From a virus: a DNA stretch of 64,000 nt. The notes under the pieces were generated by a model that worked only from the letters and a program-made list of their open reading frames with translations, was not told the origin of the DNA and did not search any database. The stretch is from IMG/VR virus record IMGVR_UViG_3300037311_000355; one strand, written 5' to 3'. Shown one piece after another: positions 22,697 through 63,838 of the stretch (position 1 is the stretch's first letter; each line of letters opens with the position of its first letter). Made by a program: the position numbers and the translations under genes.

Positions 22697-22707
22697 GATG
22701 TGTGGTT

Positions 22708-22878
22708 ATGCGGTCTTCGACGGTGACACCTAAGACTTATAGCTTATCTGAGTTCATTGGACTGAGGTTGTGGCAAAACAGGTCGTTTGATCAATCTTTG
22801 TTTCTAAAACCCAATAAGCGCCTCCCTCTGTATGTTTTTGTTCTTAAAAATCGAAGCATAATTAGGCTTTTGCTATAG
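22708..22878 (+). CDS. small hypothetical protein, 56 aa
   Basis: Manual translation; AGGA SD upstream. Confidence 0.35.
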   Translation: MRSSTVTPKTYSLSEFIGLRLWQNRSFDQSLFLKPNKRLPLYVFVLKNRSIIRLLL

Positions 22879-22888
22879 CGGTGCAAAT

Positions 22889-23125
22889 TTGACAAAAAAG
22901 TACAACGAATTCACATACGAGGTAAAATTTTGGAGACAGCCGTATACAATCTTTGGTTTATGGCAGGTGTTCCGCCACTCTGATTTTTTTCAGAGACACG
23001 CAGTAACCGATCAGTATTCCTGGCATCGCCTTAGAACCCCCGATTTCGACTTCGTGGCCGATGGGTGGTTGCGGGCCAGGAAAGCGTACTCAAGCGCGTC
23101 TATGGGGGGGGGTAAAGATGACTGA
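22889..23125 (+). CDS. hypothetical protein
   Basis: ORF track; aromatic-rich; contains a G9 run at 23104-23112 near its 3' end. Confidence 0.45.
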   Translation: MTKKYNEFTYEVKFWRQPYTIFGLWQVFRHSDFFQRHAVTDQYSWHRLRTPDFDFVADGWLRARKAYSSASMGGGKDD

Positions 23126-23327
23126 ACCGGACAATAGATACCGCAAATTAACGTATACGGTTCCGTCCCATCTGTCCGAGGGGGCGGAAATAAGACAGTT
23201 CAATAGTTTTTGAACTGGGTACACGAGTCTTTTATAGGTGTTAAAAAACTGCCTCGGGAAATCAGGGGTCCCAAACCTTGGGTTTTTGTTGTAAAAATGC
23301 ACAGAGTGTGCCATAGAGATCTATGTC

Positions 23328-23606
23328 ATGAAGCAATTTACGGAGGGCACGGGTATAAAATACGAAAATTTTGAATCAACGACTGCACGGTCTTCCTTGC
23401 GCTCGTTTTCTATGCCGGGCGCGAGCATCTGGGTTTTGTTTTTATGCTCGGGTTTTGCCGGAAACTGTGAAAATTTGTTTAAGAAACAAAAGTTAGTACG
23501 CCTGATGCGGGCTAAGCCAAAGTGGCTTCGGGGTTGCGAAACATGCGATTTGGTTAGCCACTACGCGGAAAACGTAACCTATTATATGCCGGGTGGCGTA
23601 TTATGA
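23328..23606 (+). CDS. hypothetical protein
   Basis: ORF track; ATGA overlap with the next gene. Confidence 0.45.
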   Translation: MKQFTEGTGIKYENFESTTARSSLRSFSMPGASIWVLFLCSGFAGNCENLFKKQKLVRLMRAKPKWLRGCETCDLVSHYAENVTYYMPGGVL

Positions 23607-54192: not shown

Positions 54193-54395
54193 CAGTACCT
54201 TTCGTGCGTGAGATCGCCGCCGGAATCCAAGGCCACGCCTTTTTTTCTATCGATCCACTTACGTCTTCCGGTTTGGTTGTCGACGACGATTTGCAAACCC
54301 TCGTACGTTATCGCACCCTCGGGAAGGGGTTTTTTGGCCACATGCGCTGTGCTTTGTCGAGTCGGAAGACGGGCCTTTTCAACCGACTCTAGGCT
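54192..54395 (-). CDS. 67-aa C-terminal extension reached by -1 frameshift from 54389..55624
   Basis: Open -1 frame SLESVEKARLPTRQSTAHVAKK...HERY with no start codon of its own; its TGA overlaps the next ATG. Confidence 0.7.
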   Translation of the reverse strand, partial: SLESVEKARLPTRQSTAHVAKKPLPEGAITYEGLQIVVDNQTGRRKWIDRKKGVALDSGGDLTHERY

Positions 54396-54401
54396 TTTGG
54401 G
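54359..54401 (-). promoter_or_regulatory. -1 programmed ribosomal frameshift cassette
   Basis: Slippery C-CCA-AAA (54401-54395), 5-nt spacer, GAGTCGG/CCGACTC stem (54389-54383 / 54365-54359). Confidence 0.7.
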
Positions 54402-55624
54402 AGCGATTGGCCCCCGGAATCGGATTGCCCGCCTTCTTGGGCGCCAAGCTCTTTGGCCATGGCGACCATGGTTTGCAACATGGCAATCACGCTTTTATAC
54501 GCATCTGGAGCCGCGGTTTTCATTTCGTCAATAACTGACTTGTTTTGTTTGAACTGCTCCAGGATTTGCGCGATTTTTTGTCGCAACTCGTCTGGGGTAG
54601 CAGAGCTTTCCAGCATTTCCTGCAAGGCGTAAAACTCCTCGCTTGGCCCGCCGTCTTCCGGCGCGCCCTGGTTTTCCGCGTCGCCGCCGACGGCGCCGGG
54701 ATCCGAGATGTCAGGAGACTCCTGGGCTTCAGGGGCTTGCATTTCGGGTTCCGGTGATTTTTCCGCGGTTTCCGTGTTTTGCTCTTCTTCGTTGGCGTCA
54801 ACGAATTTATCAGATTCCGGGATTTCAATTGCGCCGTCTTCGTTGGAACCACTGTGGTCGCCGCCGACATCCTCATCTTCGCTGTCTTCGGACTGCTCGT
54901 CTTCGCCTAAGATCTCATCTACGTGAGACTGCGTGCTGTGTTCGGCGCTTTTTTCTGATTCGCTTTCGTCAAAGCTGTCTTCTGTAGTCGGCGATTCAAA
55001 ACCCGGAGACCACTCGTTTTCGTCGTCGGCGTCGATTTCCGGCGGCATCTCGGTATGAGTTGGCCCCTCGTCGCGGTAGTCCTGCATTGAGTCGCCGTCA
55101 AATTCGCCGATGCCATCGGATTCCGAACGCCAGTGGTCGTCGCCCTCGATCTCATCGTCGGAATCCCCCATGACGTGATCGAGGTAGTGCTCGTTAATCT
55201 TATTTTCTTCCTCGGTACCGTCTTGGTGATTATGTGCGGCGTGAAGCGCGTCTTCGACTTCGTGGCTGTATGCCATGGACTGGTTTTTACCCGAAAGCTT
55301 GCCCGCCAACAAAGATTTGCCAGCCTGGCTAAGAGTTAGCCCGTGACCGACAGTAACCGTAATGCCGCCTGAGGCGTCTGTGAATTTCTGCCTTAGGTCT
55401 TCGATTTCTTCGCGATGCCTGGGATCCAGCATTGCCGTCATTTCATCGCCGCCACTGCTGATAACCGTGCCGCCGCGCTGGGTAACCCAGGAAATCGCGG
55501 CCTGAAGCCCGAGCCCGATGTGTTTGGAAACCGAATGCAGTGCCTCTACGTCGTCCATGAGAACCGCTTGCCCCACCTTGCCTCCGGCGTTATCAGCGTC
55601 TAGTGCGATAAAAAGTTTATTCAT
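54389..55624 (-). CDS. mCpol-like (minimal CRISPR polymerase / nucleotide cyclase palm) domain + long acidic linker + helical domain
   Basis: N-terminal FIALDADNAG...VISSGGDE...TVTVGHG...A.KSLL.GK..GKN; Asp/Glu-rich middle region. Confidence 0.7.
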   Translation of the reverse strand: MNKLFIALDADNAGGKVGQAVLMDDVEALHSVSKHIGLGLQAAISWVTQRGGTVISSGGDEMTAMLDPRHREEIEDLRQKFTDASGGITVTVGHGLTLSQAGKSLLAGKLSGKNQSMAYSHEVEDALHAAHNHQDGTEEENKINEHYLDHVMGDSDDEIEGDDHWRSESDGIGEFDGDSMQDYRDEGPTHTEMPPEIDADDENEWSPGFESPTTEDSFDESESEKSAEHSTQSHVDEILGEDEQSEDSEDEDVGGDHSGSNEDGAIEIPESDKFVDANEEEQNTETAEKSPEPEMQAPEAQESPDISDPGAVGGDAENQGAPEDGGPSEEFYALQEMLESSATPDELRQKIAQILEQFKQNKSVIDEMKTAAPDAYKSVIAMLQTMVAMAKELGAQEGGQSDSGGQSLPKA

Positions 55625-57899: not shown

Positions 57900-58164
57900 T
57901 GGCTTTTAAATCGCAAATCAGCGATTGTATTTTTTCTTCGATATCAGCGGCGCCTTGTGCCGCGGTTTTAACCAGCCACGCGTATGCCGCGGTTTTGCAC
58001 ACCCTTTGTGCTCTGTTTTTAAGACGTCGGGACGCCAGGGTTGGTCTGCATTTGAAGTCAAAAACCGGGGGCTCAAAAACCTCTAGCCTTAGTCTGTGTT
58101 CGTATTCCGCGAGGCGCCTGGCAAACGCACCGCTTTCCACGTCGGCGTCGGTTACGGCTATCAT
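57880..58164 (-). CDS. hypothetical protein
   Basis: Start revised to the ATG at 58164 (ATGA overlap with the upstream stop). Confidence 0.55.
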   Translation of the reverse strand: MIAVTDADVESGAFARRLAEYEHRLRLEVFEPPVFDFKCRPTLASRRLKNRAQRVCKTAAYAWLVKTAAQGAADIEEKIQSLICDLKANAEKNA

Positions 58165-58706
58165 TTGACGACCTCTGAGGCTTTGACGACGTTTTCTCTG
58201 ACTCTCACGTACTCGCACCCCTCTTCTAGGGCGCGGGCGGCGGCAATGTGAGCTATGGCTTGAGAGGCGATATTTGACTCCGAACCCAGGGCGTCGATGT
58301 TTGTAGGCACGTCTAGTTTTAGCTCGTTTAGCAGAATTTCTGCGCCGTATCTGAGCCTCTCAACGCCGGATTTCGTGAGTACGAACTCGATTTCAGAGTT
58401 CTTCTTAAGACTGTATAGCGCGTATCCGTTTTTCTGTGCTTCGGCGGCCAACATGTAGGAGTGTTCGCGAACCTCTTTGTCTTCGGTTTCCGACTTCATA
58501 ATATAAGGCTGAAAACCGCGAAAGTTTTTTTCCACGTTGTATCTTACAATGGCGGGATGGCTGCCGGCGGCCAGCGCTTCTTCAGTGCCGCCTTGGCTTC
58601 CGATGGCGATGCAAAGCCCGCCTTTTAGTCTAGCCATTTTAACCGGCTTTCCGTTGAGTTCTCCGATTTCGTCGATGGACTCGACTTCCGATGGTACGAT
58701 TTGCAT
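58161..58706 (-). CDS. head-associated hypothetical protein (IMKSE linker motif)
   Basis: GAGG SD; late motif at 58721-58728. Confidence 0.7.
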   Translation of the reverse strand: MQIVPSEVESIDEIGELNGKPVKMARLKGGLCIAIGSQGGTEEALAAGSHPAIVRYNVEKNFRGFQPYIMKSETEDKEVREHSYMLAAEAQKNGYALYSLKKNSEIEFVLTKSGVERLRYGAEILLNELKLDVPTNIDALGSESNIASQAIAHIAAARALEEGCEYVRVRENVVKASEVVK

Positions 58707-58719
58707 GTTTACCTCTTAT

Positions 58720-59430
58720 CTAAGATTGTCGCGGCGTTACGTCGTGTTCTTCTCCGACGTCTACGGCGTCGTATAGGGCGACTACGTGCGGGAGCGTGGG
58801 GTGGCCGCTGTTATAAAACCCCTTGTATCCCGCGGACTTAAGTCTTTCGTGGACGTCGTCGATGTTTAGCGCGCCATGGGAGGCTTGCATTGAGACCCTG
58901 ACATGAGACTCGGGATCCGTGCCCAGATCATAGAGTTTATGCGTGGCGGGAAGCCGTACCTTGTATTTCGACCGCGAGCCCTGCGCGACCAGCGACTCCG
59001 GTGTCGTGCCCTCGCGGTAGAAAAACGTGTGCGGATGCCAGGTGTCGCGTCTCGCCGAGCGATCAACGCCGGTGCCCTTGAATCTGGGGTCGATTTGTTT
59101 CAGGCCTTGTTTGGGTGAGTAGTGTTCCAGCCTGATCTCTTCAGACTTTTCAAAGTCGAAATTATGCGAGAAATGCTCGCCGCTGGGAAGCGTGGAAAAC
59201 ATATCTTTGGGCGCTTGGCTGTAAAATTGCGTTCCCGAGCCGCGGACGATGGTCCCGGCTTTGGGTCCGTGATTGAAAACCATTTTGTGCGCGACGCCGT
59301 CGCTTTCGATGTGCGATTCCTGACCCGTGGTATGAGCAAGACGTCTAATGGCTGCCAATTGCTGCTTTGAGGGTCGGGAAACCAATATCGAGCGTTCCGG
59401 AGATCCGTAGTGTCCGCTAATCGAATGCAC
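58720..59430 (-). CDS. probable C-terminal continuation of the polyvalent protein; contains an ART-like domain
   Basis: Only a GTG start, 3 nt after the G9 run; HSISGHYGSPERSILV completes the domain begun upstream; LEHYSP...GTG...TFFY...LKSAGYKG is ART-like. Confidence 0.7.
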   Translation of the reverse strand: MHSISGHYGSPERSILVSRPSKQQLAAIRRLAHTTGQESHIESDGVAHKMVFNHGPKAGTIVRGSGTQFYSQAPKDMFSTLPSGEHFSHNFDFEKSEEIRLEHYSPKQGLKQIDPRFKGTGVDRSARRDTWHPHTFFYREGTTPESLVAQGSRSKYKVRLPATHKLYDLGTDPESHVRVSMQASHGALNIDDVHERLKSAGYKGFYNSGHPTLPHVVALYDAVDVGEEHDVTPRQS

Positions 59431-62400
59431 GTCCCCCCCCCTTAATAGCGCGTAGCGCAGCTATAGCGTCGTCGTGGGAGATTTGTTTTTTTATTTTGTC
59501 CGCATATGGCGAGTTTTCCACACTAAAAATGGCATGTGGGGCGCCCACGATGGGGTGCGAGACGCTTTTGTTTTCTGACTTTTTAATAGGCCTACGAGAT
59601 CGTAAAAAGTTTTGAGCAACGCGCTCCGCTTCTTCAGGGCTGGTAACCACCCCGGCACCGGCGTAGTTGTCAGAGGTATGTTCAATGCCGTTGTGAGTCA
59701 TTACCTGCTCATGAGTTAGATCATGGGCGTCCCACATATGAAGATGCCCGTTGGGGTCTCCAAAATAACGCATTGCTTCGGCCTTGGCTCCTTGAAACAG
59801 TTTTTTTGCCTGACCCGGGGAGGGGTTTTTATGAACCCTGTGGTTAAGTCCGGTTTCTACCGGAACCCTATATACGCTCTTATTAAGAGTTTCAACTTTT
59901 TTTACAGGCTTACCAAAGCCGCGGTTTTTTTGTCTCCACAGCGCTGCGCCCTCCTTGGACTGTGCTTCGAGATCGGGCACCATACGCAACCCGGTGCGCG
60001 ACTCCAGGCTTGCGTACATCGCCGACGCCAGGCCTTTTCTTTGGTGTTCAGGGTGTACGTCAACAATATTGGCTTGCATGGTGCCGTCACCGAGGTCTTC
60101 GGCGACGACGTGACCTACGACTCGCCCACTGCTATCCAGGGCTTGCATAGCGTGGGCGCCTGGCGTCGATTTGTCGTGCAAGATTTTATAGCCCTCGGAT
60201 TTCCAATCGCCCCTGGCGCCTTTTTTTATTTCAGATCCCTGTCTTGGAGCATAGGTGCCGTGTCTGACGAAATGATTAGCGTCGGCGTATCCGATTTCCG
60301 GCCTAGTTGGATGGGCGCTAGTCCCCTGAACTGGCGATCCATCGACGTGAGCGATTTCAAAATCCCGGGTCCAAAAACCAGCGCGATTGTTTTTGTCGTT
60401 TTGCGCGTCTGCGATTAAAGATCTAAGTTTTTGATGCGCGGGGTGTCTGCGGTTTAATAACACACTGGAGTGCCCTCTAACCGAGGGTTGTCCGGCCACG
60501 CCGACGGCAATCCAGCCCTCTTTTAATTTTGCATTCATGTGGGCGCCAAGTTCGCCCTCCGTCATGTAAATTCGGTCTTCGGGTCCTATTTTTAACGTCC
60601 GTCGCGCCAAAACGGTCGAGTGCGTTTCCCCAGGGTCCATGTGGCGGTATTTGCCTTCCGGCGAAATCCAGCCATGAATGGGATTAAGTCCGGTTTTATG
60701 TCGGAGGTTTTCCCACTGCTCTTTTTTAAGCGGATTTGTTTTTTTTGGCGCCTGTTTTTCCTTTTTATCCGGATAGTATTTGTCTATAAGCGCCCACATA
60801 CGCGCGGTTTCCCGGCGTTTTTTTTCAGCCCCTGCGTCTTTGGGGGCGCCGCCGTCTGCGCTTGCGGATTTCTTAACAGCCGGTCTTGTCACGTTTGGTT
60901 TTGATTGTTTTTTGCCCGACATCGCGGCTTCGGCGGCACGCACAGCTGCGTCTATGGCCCTGCCGTGCTCGGACCTAGCCTTTTGGTCTTCTTTTGCCGT
61001 CCTGGGTCGCTGCATGCGCAGCTCAGCTAGTTTTTTATCCGTCCAGGACTTGTAAAGCAATGCCAGGCTTTCGCTGGCCGCCAGTCTTTGATCCCCGGAT
61101 TCAGGCCTTAGCTCCAAGGCCGCGGCTGCCACGCGTTTCCAGCCGCGCTTCATGTCTTGAATCAGCGCACGGCTTTTGTTGGGATCCGAGTAACTGGGAT
61201 CCAGTTTTCCCGCGTGATATATAAATCGCTGTCTTTTTTCCGGATTTGACAGCACGTCTCGGGTTGTGTTTAAAACCTCTTGAACGTAGCCGGACTTCTC
61301 GGGTTTGTAACCCACCGTTGTCAAATAGTTGTGCATCGCGCTTTGATGTTCGGCGCTGAAGTGTTTGCCAATCAAATCCCGGAGCACGGCGTCGGCGTTG
61401 CCGTGACCGATTTTGTGGCCCAGGGCGTCCATGGCTTGGTGCCCGGCCTCGTGGGCCTGCGTGTATTCCAGGCGTTTCTGCGCCGACAGCCTGCCCTCGC
61501 TTTGGCCCGGATTTCTCACTTTGTTGTATTTGCCGCCGTAGGCGAAGGCCACGTCTTTGTCTTCGGATTCGCCCTGGATCTGTGCTCCACCTAATTTAGA
61601 GGGTGCGAAATTTCTTAGCACGCGCTTGACGTTTTGCTCGACACCGGCGTCGGTTAAAAACCTAGCCCTGGGGTGGTAGTTGATGACGCGCCTGGCCTGG
61701 ATCTCCCTTTGCCTAGGTGTGGTAACTATTGCCACCGAAGACGTTTTGTCGTCGATGCCGTAGCCGGGAAACCTAAGCCTGGGTTGAGATTTTTTTACAC
61801 CAAGCTTTTCCGTCCTAGTACCAGGCCTGCGCTGCCGACTGAGTATTTTCGCGTCTCTGGGGTCAAAAACCACGTAGTTGTGATGGTCGTCGTGTTGGTA
61901 TTTGATTCCTTTTATGCCTAGTTGGTGTAAATGCGCGCTGATTTCTTTATCCGACATATTTAGATAATGCCGGTGGCCGCCGTAAAACTCGCCGCCCTTG
62001 AGCTGCTCGCCGGTTAAAAACTGTCCGGGGCTTTTTGCCGCCCTGTCGTTGGCGTCGCGATACCCCTGCGTGCCGCGGATCGCGTCTCGGACCTTTTTAG
62101 GCTGCTTGGCTACCGGAAGATCCCAGTGCAGCATCTCGTGATCCGAGGGCCTGTCGACGCGATAGAGTCCGCCCTTGCCGGGATCTGACCTTAGATTGGC
62201 GTAGAAGCCGGCTTCGTTTTTGCTCGAACTCAAGTAAATTCCATGTCCTCTGCTGGTCCCGTGTTGGGAGCCCGCCTTGTCGGTGTCAAAAGATTCGAAG
62301 TCGTTTGGGCTGCCGTGGTAGGCCAACGGGGATTTGCGAAGCTCGCTTGCCGCCAAAGGCTTTGGTTTTTGTTGCTTAGCAGATTTGTAATTGGGGTGTT

Positions 62401-63838
62401 CTGCTACCGCCCATCTCACATCTGCGTCGGCGTCGGTGTGTAGCGCGTGTAAGATGTCAGAAGGAGCCAATTCATTAGACAGCGCAGCGGTATGGCCGCG
62501 GTAGCCGTGACTGATCTTATTATGAAATATTTTTTTCACGTTTTCAGCAGAGGTATTTTTTGTCGTGTGCGGCGACACCAGATATTCGTTTTCGTTGCCA
62601 AATTTTTGACTAGTCGCGTTTTTGTGACCGAGATCGTAGCTGTACCAGATGTTGTCCAAGGGCACCATTCGGTGTTTCATCGTATCGCCGAAACCCGTGT
62701 TTTCTACGTCGCCGTAGCTGTGCAGCTGGTGTTCGGGACCGGTTTTAAAGACACCCTTGTACCCCCTGGTAAGCGCGACATGAGGCCTGCCGTCGATGGT
62801 ATGTACTCGATGACTGGCATGAGCTAAGATGTTTTCTCTCAGCCTGTTTTTGTGCCAGCGCAATTGCCGGGCTATTTTTTTACCGTGGGCGGCGGCGAAT
62901 TCGTGAAGGTCTTCAATAGTTATGTGTGAATTTTTTTCCGCCGCACCGCCGCTCTGGTGCAGGTCCATAAAGTTTTTGTCGGCTCGGGCCGCGGATTTCG
63001 CGTTGGCGTAGTTTTTGCGGTTTTCCATGACATTGACGATGTATTTAAGCGCCAGACTCGCCGGGTGATGAGGACTGTGCTTGTAGTGTCTGAAAAGCGT
63101 GCTTGCGCTGGGTTCGCGGTTTTTGTAAAACTGAAACTCTTTTTCTATTTTTGTCTTCTTGCGCTCGGCTTTTTCAAGCCCGTCGCCGTCGTCGTTTTCT
63201 TGGTGTTCGCGGTCGTGTTTGGCCTGATCCCAGGGATCGTCGAATTCCACGGGTTTCGGCGACGCCGGAGCGGGCTCTGGCTTCCGGTTTTCATTGCCCT
63301 GTTTTTCACCGTCTTCGCTCGCCGCCAGTTTTTTACCGGAAAATGGCAGCGTCTCCACGGTTACCGCGCCTTCGCAATACACGGGATCGCTGAACCGGAT
63401 GTCGGTGAACCCGGATTTCACATGCTGGTCGTAAATGGATTTGGGAACCGTGACACGGGCTTGAAAACTAGGGTACGTGTATCCGGTGCCGCGGTGGCGT
63501 TTGTAGACGTTTTTATAGGCCTCTGGCATGCCGTGGAGCTTGATGTGATAGTAGGCGTTGCCGTCGGGACCCTGAAACACACCGGGCTCCTGCGTCAGTT
63601 TGTGCTCGCCGGGGTTGGGAAGGCCTCGGAAGTCGTCAAGATGGCGTCTCGCGTTGTCTTCGGGTTTGAATTGTTTCACTGTTACGTGATACGGCAAGCC
63701 GTTGGGCTGATGGCTTTCCCCGTTTACGGCGACAGGCACTATGATGCTGTGACGCTCGCTGGCGCGGCGCTTATAGGCGGCGTCGGTTTTTTTAAGCGCG
63801 CCCGCGGCTCCACGCAGGGCATCCCAGAGTTTTCCCAT
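59417..63838 (-). CDS. polyvalent multi-enzyme protein (2H phosphoesterase-like, R-S-E ART-like, HEAT/LRV repeat, ART-PolyVal-like, HExxH peptidase, GNAT, unknown domains)
   Basis: YHVTV; LTRG/LHSY/ENEYLV; AYHGS...GHGIYLS...EAGFYA; HEAGH; VDVHPEHQRKGLASAMY. Confidence 0.8.
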   Translation of the reverse strand: MGKLWDALRGAAGALKKTDAAYKRRASERHSIIVPVAVNGESHQPNGLPYHVTVKQFKPEDNARRHLDDFRGLPNPGEHKLTQEPGVFQGPDGNAYYHIKLHGMPEAYKNVYKRHRGTGYTYPSFQARVTVPKSIYDQHVKSGFTDIRFSDPVYCEGAVTVETLPFSGKKLAASEDGEKQGNENRKPEPAPASPKPVEFDDPWDQAKHDREHQENDDGDGLEKAERKKTKIEKEFQFYKNREPSASTLFRHYKHSPHHPASLALKYIVNVMENRKNYANAKSAARADKNFMDLHQSGGAAEKNSHITIEDLHEFAAAHGKKIARQLRWHKNRLRENILAHASHRVHTIDGRPHVALTRGYKGVFKTGPEHQLHSYGDVENTGFGDTMKHRMVPLDNIWYSYDLGHKNATSQKFGNENEYLVSPHTTKNTSAENVKKIFHNKISHGYRGHTAALSNELAPSDILHALHTDADADVRWAVAEHPNYKSAKQQKPKPLAASELRKSPLAYHGSPNDFESFDTDKAGSQHGTSRGHGIYLSSSKNEAGFYANLRSDPGKGGLYRVDRPSDHEMLHWDLPVAKQPKKVRDAIRGTQGYRDANDRAAKSPGQFLTGEQLKGGEFYGGHRHYLNMSDKEISAHLHQLGIKGIKYQHDDHHNYVVFDPRDAKILSRQRRPGTRTEKLGVKKSQPRLRFPGYGIDDKTSSVAIVTTPRQREIQARRVINYHPRARFLTDAGVEQNVKRVLRNFAPSKLGGAQIQGESEDKDVAFAYGGKYNKVRNPGQSEGRLSAQKRLEYTQAHEAGHQAMDALGHKIGHGNADAVLRDLIGKHFSAEHQSAMHNYLTTVGYKPEKSGYVQEVLNTTRDVLSNPEKRQRFIYHAGKLDPSYSDPNKSRALIQDMKRGWKRVAAAALELRPESGDQRLAASESLALLYKSWTDKKLAELRMQRPRTAKEDQKARSEHGRAIDAAVRAAEAAMSGKKQSKPNVTRPAVKKSASADGGAPKDAGAEKKRRETARMWALIDKYYPDKKEKQAPKKTNPLKKEQWENLRHKTGLNPIHGWISPEGKYRHMDPGETHSTVLARRTLKIGPEDRIYMTEGELGAHMNAKLKEGWIAVGVAGQPSVRGHSSVLLNRRHPAHQKLRSLIADAQNDKNNRAGFWTRDFEIAHVDGSPVQGTSAHPTRPEIGYADANHFVRHGTYAPRQGSEIKKGARGDWKSEGYKILHDKSTPGAHAMQALDSSGRVVGHVVAEDLGDGTMQANIVDVHPEHQRKGLASAMYASLESRTGLRMVPDLEAQSKEGAALWRQKNRGFGKPVKKVETLNKSVYRVPVETGLNHRVHKNPSPGQAKKLFQGAKAEAMRYFGDPNGHLHMWDAHDLTHEQVMTHNGIEHTSDNYAGAGVVTSPEEAERVAQNFLRSRRPIKKSENKSVSHPIVGAPHAIFSVENSPYADKIKKQISHDDAIAALRAIKGGGRAFD
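59433..59441 (-). repeat. G9 homopolymer separating two halves of one reading frame
   Basis: Nine C on the + strand; G8 would fuse 63838..58720 into 1705 aa. Confidence 0.9.

Follow-up and report, generated by a model that had tools for sequence, protein, structure and literature searches.

The window analysed here is a 64,000-nucleotide stretch of viral DNA from IMG/VR (record IMGVR_UViG_3300037311_000355). Its positions 58,720 to 63,838 hold, on the reverse strand, a giant gene that belongs to the known class of phage polyvalent proteins, with some new parts. In 2017 Iyer, Burroughs, Anand, de Souza and Aravind described polyvalent proteins that combine ADP-ribosyltransferase (ART), GNAT, 2H and zincin modules and whose genes adjoin virion genes (PMC5512222). 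In the present gene at least six recognisable unrelated modules were found in one chain. An exhaustive search with residues 1–1200 returned 2,628 relatives, nearly all of them large proteins of mosaic architecture, and the gene is located among virion genes, between the major head and adaptor-like genes on one side and the neck and sheath genes on the other. A first-pass annotation, made from the letters alone, had proposed a phage polyvalent protein in a late structural operon. Module content and gene order agree with this proposal, and all motifs on which it was based (HVTV, LTRG, LHSY, ENEYLV, AYHGS, HEAGH and HQRKG) were re-located at their positions.

The coding sequence is distributed over two open reading frames (ORFs), P0001 and P0002, with a change of frame at a run of nine guanines, G9 (Table 1). 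The GTG start of P0002 lies 14 nt before the stop codon of P0001, and the junction reads AAG-G9-AC-GTG. No break was observed at this point in 16 homologues, which are continuous across it, and P0001 and P0002 are therefore considered one gene. The single gene of the first-pass annotation is thus borne out by the homologues, but it is not intact as sequenced. Homologues of P0002 that stand alone (290–350 amino acids, aa) have approximately 55 additional N-terminal residues (PHFLFSAENP...LK.AGYDAHEV.GHYG), which match the last 45 residues of P0001 (PHAIFSVENSPY...LRAIKGG). With the run read as G8, the chain continues as K-G-G-D-V-H-S and yields a product of 1705 aa; G11 likewise restores the frame. 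The glycine loop of the relatives at this position is coded by GGT/GGC and no G or C run of seven or more was found in them, so the tract is lineage-specific and not a conserved slippage signal. A G-rich, Shine-Dalgarno-like stretch is present upstream of the GTG of P0002, and it is possible that the run serves only as a Shine-Dalgarno sequence for separate initiation, in which case the P0002 product would be without the first strand and helix of its first domain. A second G9 run, at 23104–23112, is the only other G/C homopolymer of seven or more in the window; the stretch surrounding it (22700–23330) holds short ORFs only.

The protein is letter-for-letter identical on two contigs, one of 82 kb from Logan (freshwater metagenome) and one of 17.5 kb from JGI. 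Pattern scans of metagenome and viral collections gave no further copy and no variants in the length of the G run. No nucleotide match to known phages was obtained, and tblastn produced a single hit at the level of the GNAT domain.

Table 1. Coordinates of the polyvalent gene, its modules and adjoining features in the window (residue numbers refer to P0001 unless stated otherwise).
Feature	Coordinates	Strand	Residues	Remarks
Main ORF P0001	59417..63838	-	1473 aa	Starts 2 nt past the stop of the 278-aa adaptor-like gene
Module 1, 2H phosphoesterase/Acb1-like	63329..63811	-	10–170	HVTV at 63677–63688 (H51-V-T-V)
Linker KKLAASED	63311..63334	-	169–176	
Linker sites			171, 221, 495, 919, 966, 1418; P0002 residue 93	Equal to module boundaries
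Module 2, helical lobe and putative DRAT-like R-S-E ART	62504..63163	-	226–445	Outside Pfam coverage
Module 2 motif LTRG	62762–62773	-		
Module 2 motif LHSY	62714–62725	-		
Module 2 motif ENEYLV	62576–62593	-		
LRV/HEAT-like repeat (DVRWAVAEHPN)	62363..62485	-	452–492	Motif and predicted helices
Module 3, ART-PolyVal (PF18760)	61799..62341	-	500–680	AYHGS at 62309–62323
Module 4, HExxH (796–800) and E854	61079..61771	-	690–920	HEAGH at 61439–61453
Module 5, conserved domain	60239..60736	-	1035–1200	HGWISPxG ... H ... GW ... HPA
Module 6, GNAT acetyltransferase	59879..60226	-	1205–1320	QRKGLA acetyl-CoA motif; HQRKG at 60032–60046
Module 7, orphan His-rich stretch	59588..59866	-	1325–1417	HRVHKNPS
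Predicted SAM lyase module, split by G9	59140..59572	-	1423–1468 and P0002 1–97	
G9 tract at the frame change	59433..59441	-		C9 on the + strand; reading as G8 or G11 joins the ORFs
Second ORF P0002	58720..59430	-	236 aa	GTG start, +1 frame; SAM lyase remainder and terminal ART-fold module
Terminal module, diphtheria-toxin/PARP-like ART fold	58723..59139	-	P0002 98–236	HYS ... FFY ... YD ... GYxGF
181-aa gene	58161..58706	-	181 aa	Closes the cassette in all four phages; three linker copies

Module content of the chain

Relatives were cut into modules by local searches. Neither the whole protein nor the profiles of four modules matched a PDB sequence, and NCBIfam gave nothing useful. The assignments below draw on conserved residues, on Pfam, on language-model clusters and on the folds of models.

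The closest language-model clusters of module 1 are all 2',5'-RNA-ligase/LigT/Acb1 families (score 0.93), and its HxTxK motif is invariant in the alignment of homologues. A 2H or Acb1 enzyme has two H-x-T/S motifs. The first one is intact here, but the second, with His in nine of nine homologues, reads R128-V-T-V. The 2H-like domain that had been proposed for this end of the protein therefore stands as to family and not as to activity: module 1 is a 2H protein by descent and probably catalytically impaired, because Arg128 replaces the second catalytic His.

Module 2 is the commonest module among the relatives, being present in at least 84 of the 172 that were fetched. The pattern read earlier as an R-S-E type ART was strengthened, as R358, S374 and E416-N-E418 (ExE) are invariant in 46 homologues. 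An AlphaFold2 (AF2) model with a mean predicted local distance difference test (pLDDT) of 87.8 found DRAT as its best Swiss-Prot fold match (E 2.5e-3, probability 1.0, 203 residues aligned) at about 15% identity. A wide fold search of the PDB gave Z-scores of 4.1–4.3 to C3stau2, SpvB and ART2.2 over 120–133 residues, and ARTs made up about 15 of the best 50 PDB rows. Foldseek of the same model against PDB and BFVD returned no significant row, with XopAI, Tre1, ART2.2 and C3 leading in the PDB. The Pfam family DRAT (PF07357) was touched by one of the 46 homologues (E 0.007). Support for an ART fold is moderate, and module 2 is best described as a putative, divergent DRAT-like R-S-E ART. It is followed by an LRV/HEAT-like repeat, for which the outcome was mixed: a single motif with predicted helices is present and homologues have significant LRV_2 matches, but the Pfam scan of this protein yielded no LRV match.

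Two of the middle modules could be placed in Pfam families, in agreement with the first reading of the sequence. The H-Y type ART domain, module 3, matches ART-PolyVal (PF18760) at residues 507–664 with 36.3 bits (cut-off 31.2), and the proposed GNAT, module 6, matches PF00583 at residues 1211–1280 with 22.2 bits (cut-off 20.7), with QRKGLA at 1266–1271. Between them lies the HEAGH stretch that had been called a zincin with a downstream Glu. Its residues are well conserved, H796, E797 and E854 being invariant in 13 sequences and H800 present in 12 of these, but no peptidase or other match was obtained for module 4 in Pfam, homologues included, or in PDB sequence searches. At the level of motifs, module 4 may be called zincin-like. 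Module 5, with the GWISPEG motif, had been left unassigned and is indeed a conserved family without annotation; Pfam scans of its homologues gave nothing and the scores of a language-model search were under the useful range. For module 7 no clear homologue was seen in the sequence sets searched.

The stretch around G9 was overlooked in the first-pass annotation, which had placed a third ART-like domain past the run. The N-terminal strand and helix of the domain at G9 are specified by the frame of P0001, and the signature GHY, PE and GQES in that of P0002, so that the frame change splits an otherwise recognisable module. Its fold was examined on the model of homologue P0017 (48% identical, pLDDT 90.6), which shows two domains, at residues 19–148 and 153–290. 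The first aligned with the S-adenosylmethionine (SAM) lyase of phage T3 (7ock_L) with a Z-score of 10.4 and a root-mean-square deviation of 3.8 over 122 residues, and with Svi3-3 with a Z-score of 6.2; Foldseek gave a probability of 1.0 to 8bb1_E and 7ock. The Pfam family PF23780 matched homologues with E-values of 5e-6 and 1.4e-4, the best at 26.9 bits and just below the cut-off of 28, while a scan of the window ORFs alone gave no PF23780 match. Gly-x-Tyr, Glu and Gln-Glu-Ser are conserved across SAM lyases as ligand contacts (Guo et al., PMC7877911). The motifs GHY, PE and GQES of the window copy and its homologues follow in the same order as these residues, the correspondence being drawn from motif order. 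Judged by the modelled fold, the module interrupted at G9 is a SAM lyase of the T3 type.

The proposed third ART is retained for the last ~140 residues. In the search with the P0017 model, ART folds spanning the whole second domain (residues 153–290) occupied 26 of the best 50 rows at Z-scores of 4.4–6.4, among them MbcT (6.4), diphtheria toxin (6.3), ParT (6.3), a cyanophage A4 pre-ejectosome chain (5.9), an anti-CRISPR chain (6kyf, 5.5) and PARPs. H, S, Y, Y and D are invariant in the homologue alignment and may include the catalytic His, Tyr and acidic residue of H-Y-E (diphtheria toxin/PARP-like) ARTs. When the profile of the terminal module was compared with a single ART-PolyVal sequence (module 3), nothing matched, so the assignment rests on fold.

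A boundary motif and a conserved gene slot

A short linker ending in Glu, [LIVMF]-x-[KA]-[SA]-E, was found at every module boundary. P0001 and P0002 together contain seven sites against 0.6 expected from shuffles, with LAASE alone occurring three times. Including the next ORF, ten sites were counted in 1,890 aa, compared with five in the ~17,400 aa encoded elsewhere in the window. In the head region the linker recurs in an acidic scaffold-like protein (six copies), in a DUF6321 protein (four, including KKLAASEDG as in P0001) and in the 181-aa protein that follows the polyvalent gene. The capsid and MuF-like proteins are free of it, as are nine neck ORFs. Two related phages show the same distribution, with seven sites in the scaffold-like protein and five to six in the polyvalent genes, while 21 neck or tail ORFs that were scanned carry one site in total. 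The motif is thus shared by the scaffold-like protein and some other head-region proteins and nearly absent from neck and tail proteins.

The homologues show the same tendency. In 160 of them, 262 sites were observed versus 81 expected. Module cores comprise 19.6% of the residues but contain only 8 of 256 sites (p = 4e-15). One linker site, IKKSE/N, coincides exactly with the Met start of nine giant homologues.

Two head-region genes have sites of this type at conserved positions. Immediately upstream of the scaffold-like gene, a 156-aa ORF (L001 5034–5504, + strand, outside the window) starts MKSLAKAE/ALIRGL; the site, eight residues into the ORF, is kept in the related phage L003 (IAKAE/ALMR), as if a short propeptide were removed. 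In the 181–185-aa gene closing the slot, a site of the linker type is conserved around residue 71, and its protein may accordingly be processed too.

On the 82-kb contig the gene order could be followed through the head module. It starts with genes for a chaperonin-like protein, proteins of 625 aa and 315 aa, the portal, a 177-aa protein, a MuF-like protein and an M15-peptidase-like protein. A reversed gene for the 855-aa DUF6321 protein, the 156-aa ORF and the genes for the 258-aa scaffold-like protein and the major head protein (phrog_752, E 4e-45) come next, and then a reversed thymidylate-kinase-like gene, a 128-aa gene, the 278-aa adaptor-like gene and the polyvalent gene. The 181-aa gene, further neck-region genes and the tail sheath gene complete the series. 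This order is kept in three related phages.

What varies is the content of the slot behind the 278-aa gene, which holds one gene of 2548 aa in L003, four genes in L005 and five in L004/L006. Across the four phages the same modules are thus encoded in one, two, four or five genes, and the comparison of module content among related phages that had been recommended earlier shows a mosaic. The SAM lyase, 2H, R-S-E ART, ART-PolyVal-like, module 5, GNAT and terminal ART modules recur in varied order and fusion. The HExxH module is limited to the phage of the window, and in the three relatives the SAM lyase is placed at the start of the first gene in the slot.

Several neighbouring genes deserve mention. 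The DUF6321 gene (L001 2309–4876, - strand, outside the window) lies on the opposite strand within the head module, and in the small relatives P0021 and P0024 DUF6321 is fused to the terminal ART module. The chaperonin-like protein is a Cpn60/GroEL-like protein of 586 aa (L007 3564–5324, + strand, outside the window), encoded upstream of both the 625-aa and the portal gene. A neck-region gene of 411 aa at 54389–55624 (- strand) has an mCpol match (PF18182), and each of the three related phages has a counterpart (450–491 aa) in the corresponding place. In the related 146-kb phage (L005 1–272), the gene upstream of the M15-peptidase-like gene contains an intein that bears a LAGLIDADG endonuclease.

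No prohead protease gene was recognised from the terminase to the capsid genes, about 8 kb of the contig lying outside the survey. A 213-aa ORF was considered and rejected, as its relatives are M15 cell-wall peptidases, and the 156-aa ORF mentioned above was not convincing as a protease.

Proposed packaging and processing, and the alternatives

The prohead protease gp21 of phage T4 cuts after Glu. That of SPN3US, gp245, cuts after A-X-E (PMC10052503). From such Glu-cutting proteases and the distribution of the linker we infer that the head protease cuts at the linker and that the chain is a polyprotein of cargo enzymes. The explanation that we prefer, with confidence short of firm, is that an uncultured freshwater phage with a contractile tail encodes a polyvalent chain of ~1,700 residues, which is probably cut in the capsid by the head protease and enters the host together with the DNA to disarm its defences. 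Its gene, directly behind the adaptor-like gene, would be transcribed along with the structural genes, and the chain would be built into the prohead. There the head-maturation protease would cut after the Glu of each linker, in the manner of gp21 and gp245. The freed enzymes would leave the capsid with the DNA and act ahead of any phage gene expression. They would probably deplete SAM to counter restriction-modification and BREX, modify host proteins by ADP-ribosylation and acetylation, and bind or hydrolyse cyclic nucleotides. That the protein is packaged and injected had been suggested before; the linker held in common with the scaffold-like protein and the conserved slot between adaptor-like and neck genes lend this suggestion indirect support.

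Module identities, the linker statistics, the conserved slot and the frame break are what the analysis shows; packaging, cleavage, injection and targets are predicted. A number of points weigh against this explanation. The linker differs from every characterised protease site, its P3 position often being Lys; the major head protein has no strict linker site; 53 of the 160 homologues are without the motif, as is expected if the linker is lineage-specific; and the survey described above recognised no prohead protease gene. Among the modules, module 1 is without its second catalytic His, the fold matches of module 2 are each weak (PDB Z-scores up to 4.4) and module 4 is zincin-like at the level of motifs. 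Finally, the gene is frame-broken as sequenced and the sequence was present in a single public run, as a contig at ~26x depth. Given the frame break and the missing His, part of the arsenal may be dead.

An unpackaged chain, made late and acting in the producing cell (late host shut-off or exclusion of other phages), with the linker as flexible joint or recombination seam, must also be weighed. It would account for the failure to recognise a protease gene between terminase and capsid, it would fit relatives in which cassette genes can encode small individual proteins that share no obvious targeting peptide, and it does without packaging. A neutral joint, however, does not explain why the linker recurs in the scaffold-like protein and is scarce in neck and tail proteins. 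The gene also sits inside the head-to-neck operon, 2 nt behind the adaptor-like gene, and it is right at the onset of infection that a SAM lyase is of use (PMC7877911). We consider an unpackaged chain unlikely.

The frame break could be a homopolymer error of short-read assembly, the true gene being one ORF of 1705 aa. One base is indeed enough to restore the domain, which 16 homologues have unbroken, and relatives have no G run at that point. Against this, the Logan and JGI contigs come from different pipelines and differ at 2 of 17,568 bases, yet G9 is present in both at the depth already mentioned, and an error of this kind is rated as quite unlikely. Processing of the chain by its own HExxH module, in line with the zincin-mediated processing proposed for polyvalent proteins (PMC5512222) and with the invariance of H796, E797 and the downstream Glu in 13 homologues, is very unlikely, because the three syntenic phages without this module retain the linker in cassette and scaffold-like protein, and neither Pfam nor a PDB sequence search recognised module 4 as a peptidase.

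If the break is real, it has consequences for the payload of the packaged chain. Since G9 interrupts the SAM lyase reading frame, most of the population would make a chain of 1473 aa without a working SAM lyase or last ART, and the 1705-aa form would be made only if slippage to G8 or G11 restores the frame. A more daring version, in which we place little confidence, takes the linker as the recognition site of the head protease of this phage group and the slot as a plug-in cargo bay of one to five genes, where linker-flanked modules are loaded, cut and injected; G9 would then be a heritable or slippage switch for SAM lyase and last ART, giving mixed anti-restriction payloads.

Polyvalent proteins are regarded as the opening attack of a phage. 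The locus bears on how a chain of 160 kDa could be packed and become a set of working enzymes. A boundary motif shared with the scaffold offers a directly testable processing rule and a means to predict cargo proteins in uncultured phages. The findings also place a T3-type SAM lyase among the candidate capsid-delivered enzymes, by which, if true, SAM would be depleted before restriction or BREX acts. The DRAT-like module defines a large ART family outside Pfam, and the G9 break provides a natural test of variable payload composition.

Comparison with known systems

In Campylobacter phages, hypermutable polyG tracts are found in receptor-binding genes, and their variation has been shown experimentally. 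The tract described here is similar in being a long G run in a gene of the structural region that is able to switch the frame. It differs in lying in a polyvalent gene, and in being known from one run at contig level, as G9 only.

Module 2 resembles DRAT (P14299; PF07357), its best fold match, in having R, S and ExE all present. Unlike DRAT, it occurs in a phage, with an extra helical lobe and an LRV repeat in its neighbourhood.

The SAM lyase module shares with T3 SAM lyase (gp0.3) and Svi3-3 (PDB 7OCK, 8BB1, 6ZM9) both the fold, at the Z-scores given above, and the signature GxY...E...QES. T3 SAM lyase is the product of the first early gene, whereas here the lyase is a module of a polyprotein from the late structural operon. 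Nine homologues are giant proteins with the lyase as their N-terminal module, in contrast to the frameshift-split module of the window. By analogy, an anti-restriction and anti-BREX role is plausible.

The proposed fate of the chain is comparable to that of T4 Alt and the T4 internal proteins, and of the ejection proteins of SPN3US and phiKZ. The maturation protease cleaves these head-internal proteins, an R-S-E ART included, behind a Glu, and they are ejected together with the DNA. In such phages the scaffold is cut at many sites, and the scaffold-like protein here bears many linker sites. Their protease removes N-terminal propeptides of single proteins, whereas the present motif parts about nine modules of one chain. 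Here cleavage is a prediction, and a gene like that of gp21 or gp245 was not recognised from terminase to capsid.

The closest relationship is with the polyvalent proteins of phages and conjugative elements in PMC5512222, to which the chain corresponds as a giant mosaic of ART, GNAT, 2H and HExxH modules beside virion genes with rapid module shuffling. An ART adjoining a GNAT, a theme listed in that paper, is present here too. A text search of the literature found no work joining SAM lyase and polyvalent proteins, reference lists aside. Relative to PMC5512222, the following features differ. The SAM lyase and DRAT-like ART modules have no occurrence in that paper. In place of the zincin self-processing proposed there, each boundary is marked by a Glu-ending linker common to the scaffold-like protein, the same modules are encoded in one to five genes of one conserved slot, and the frame is broken at a G9 tract.

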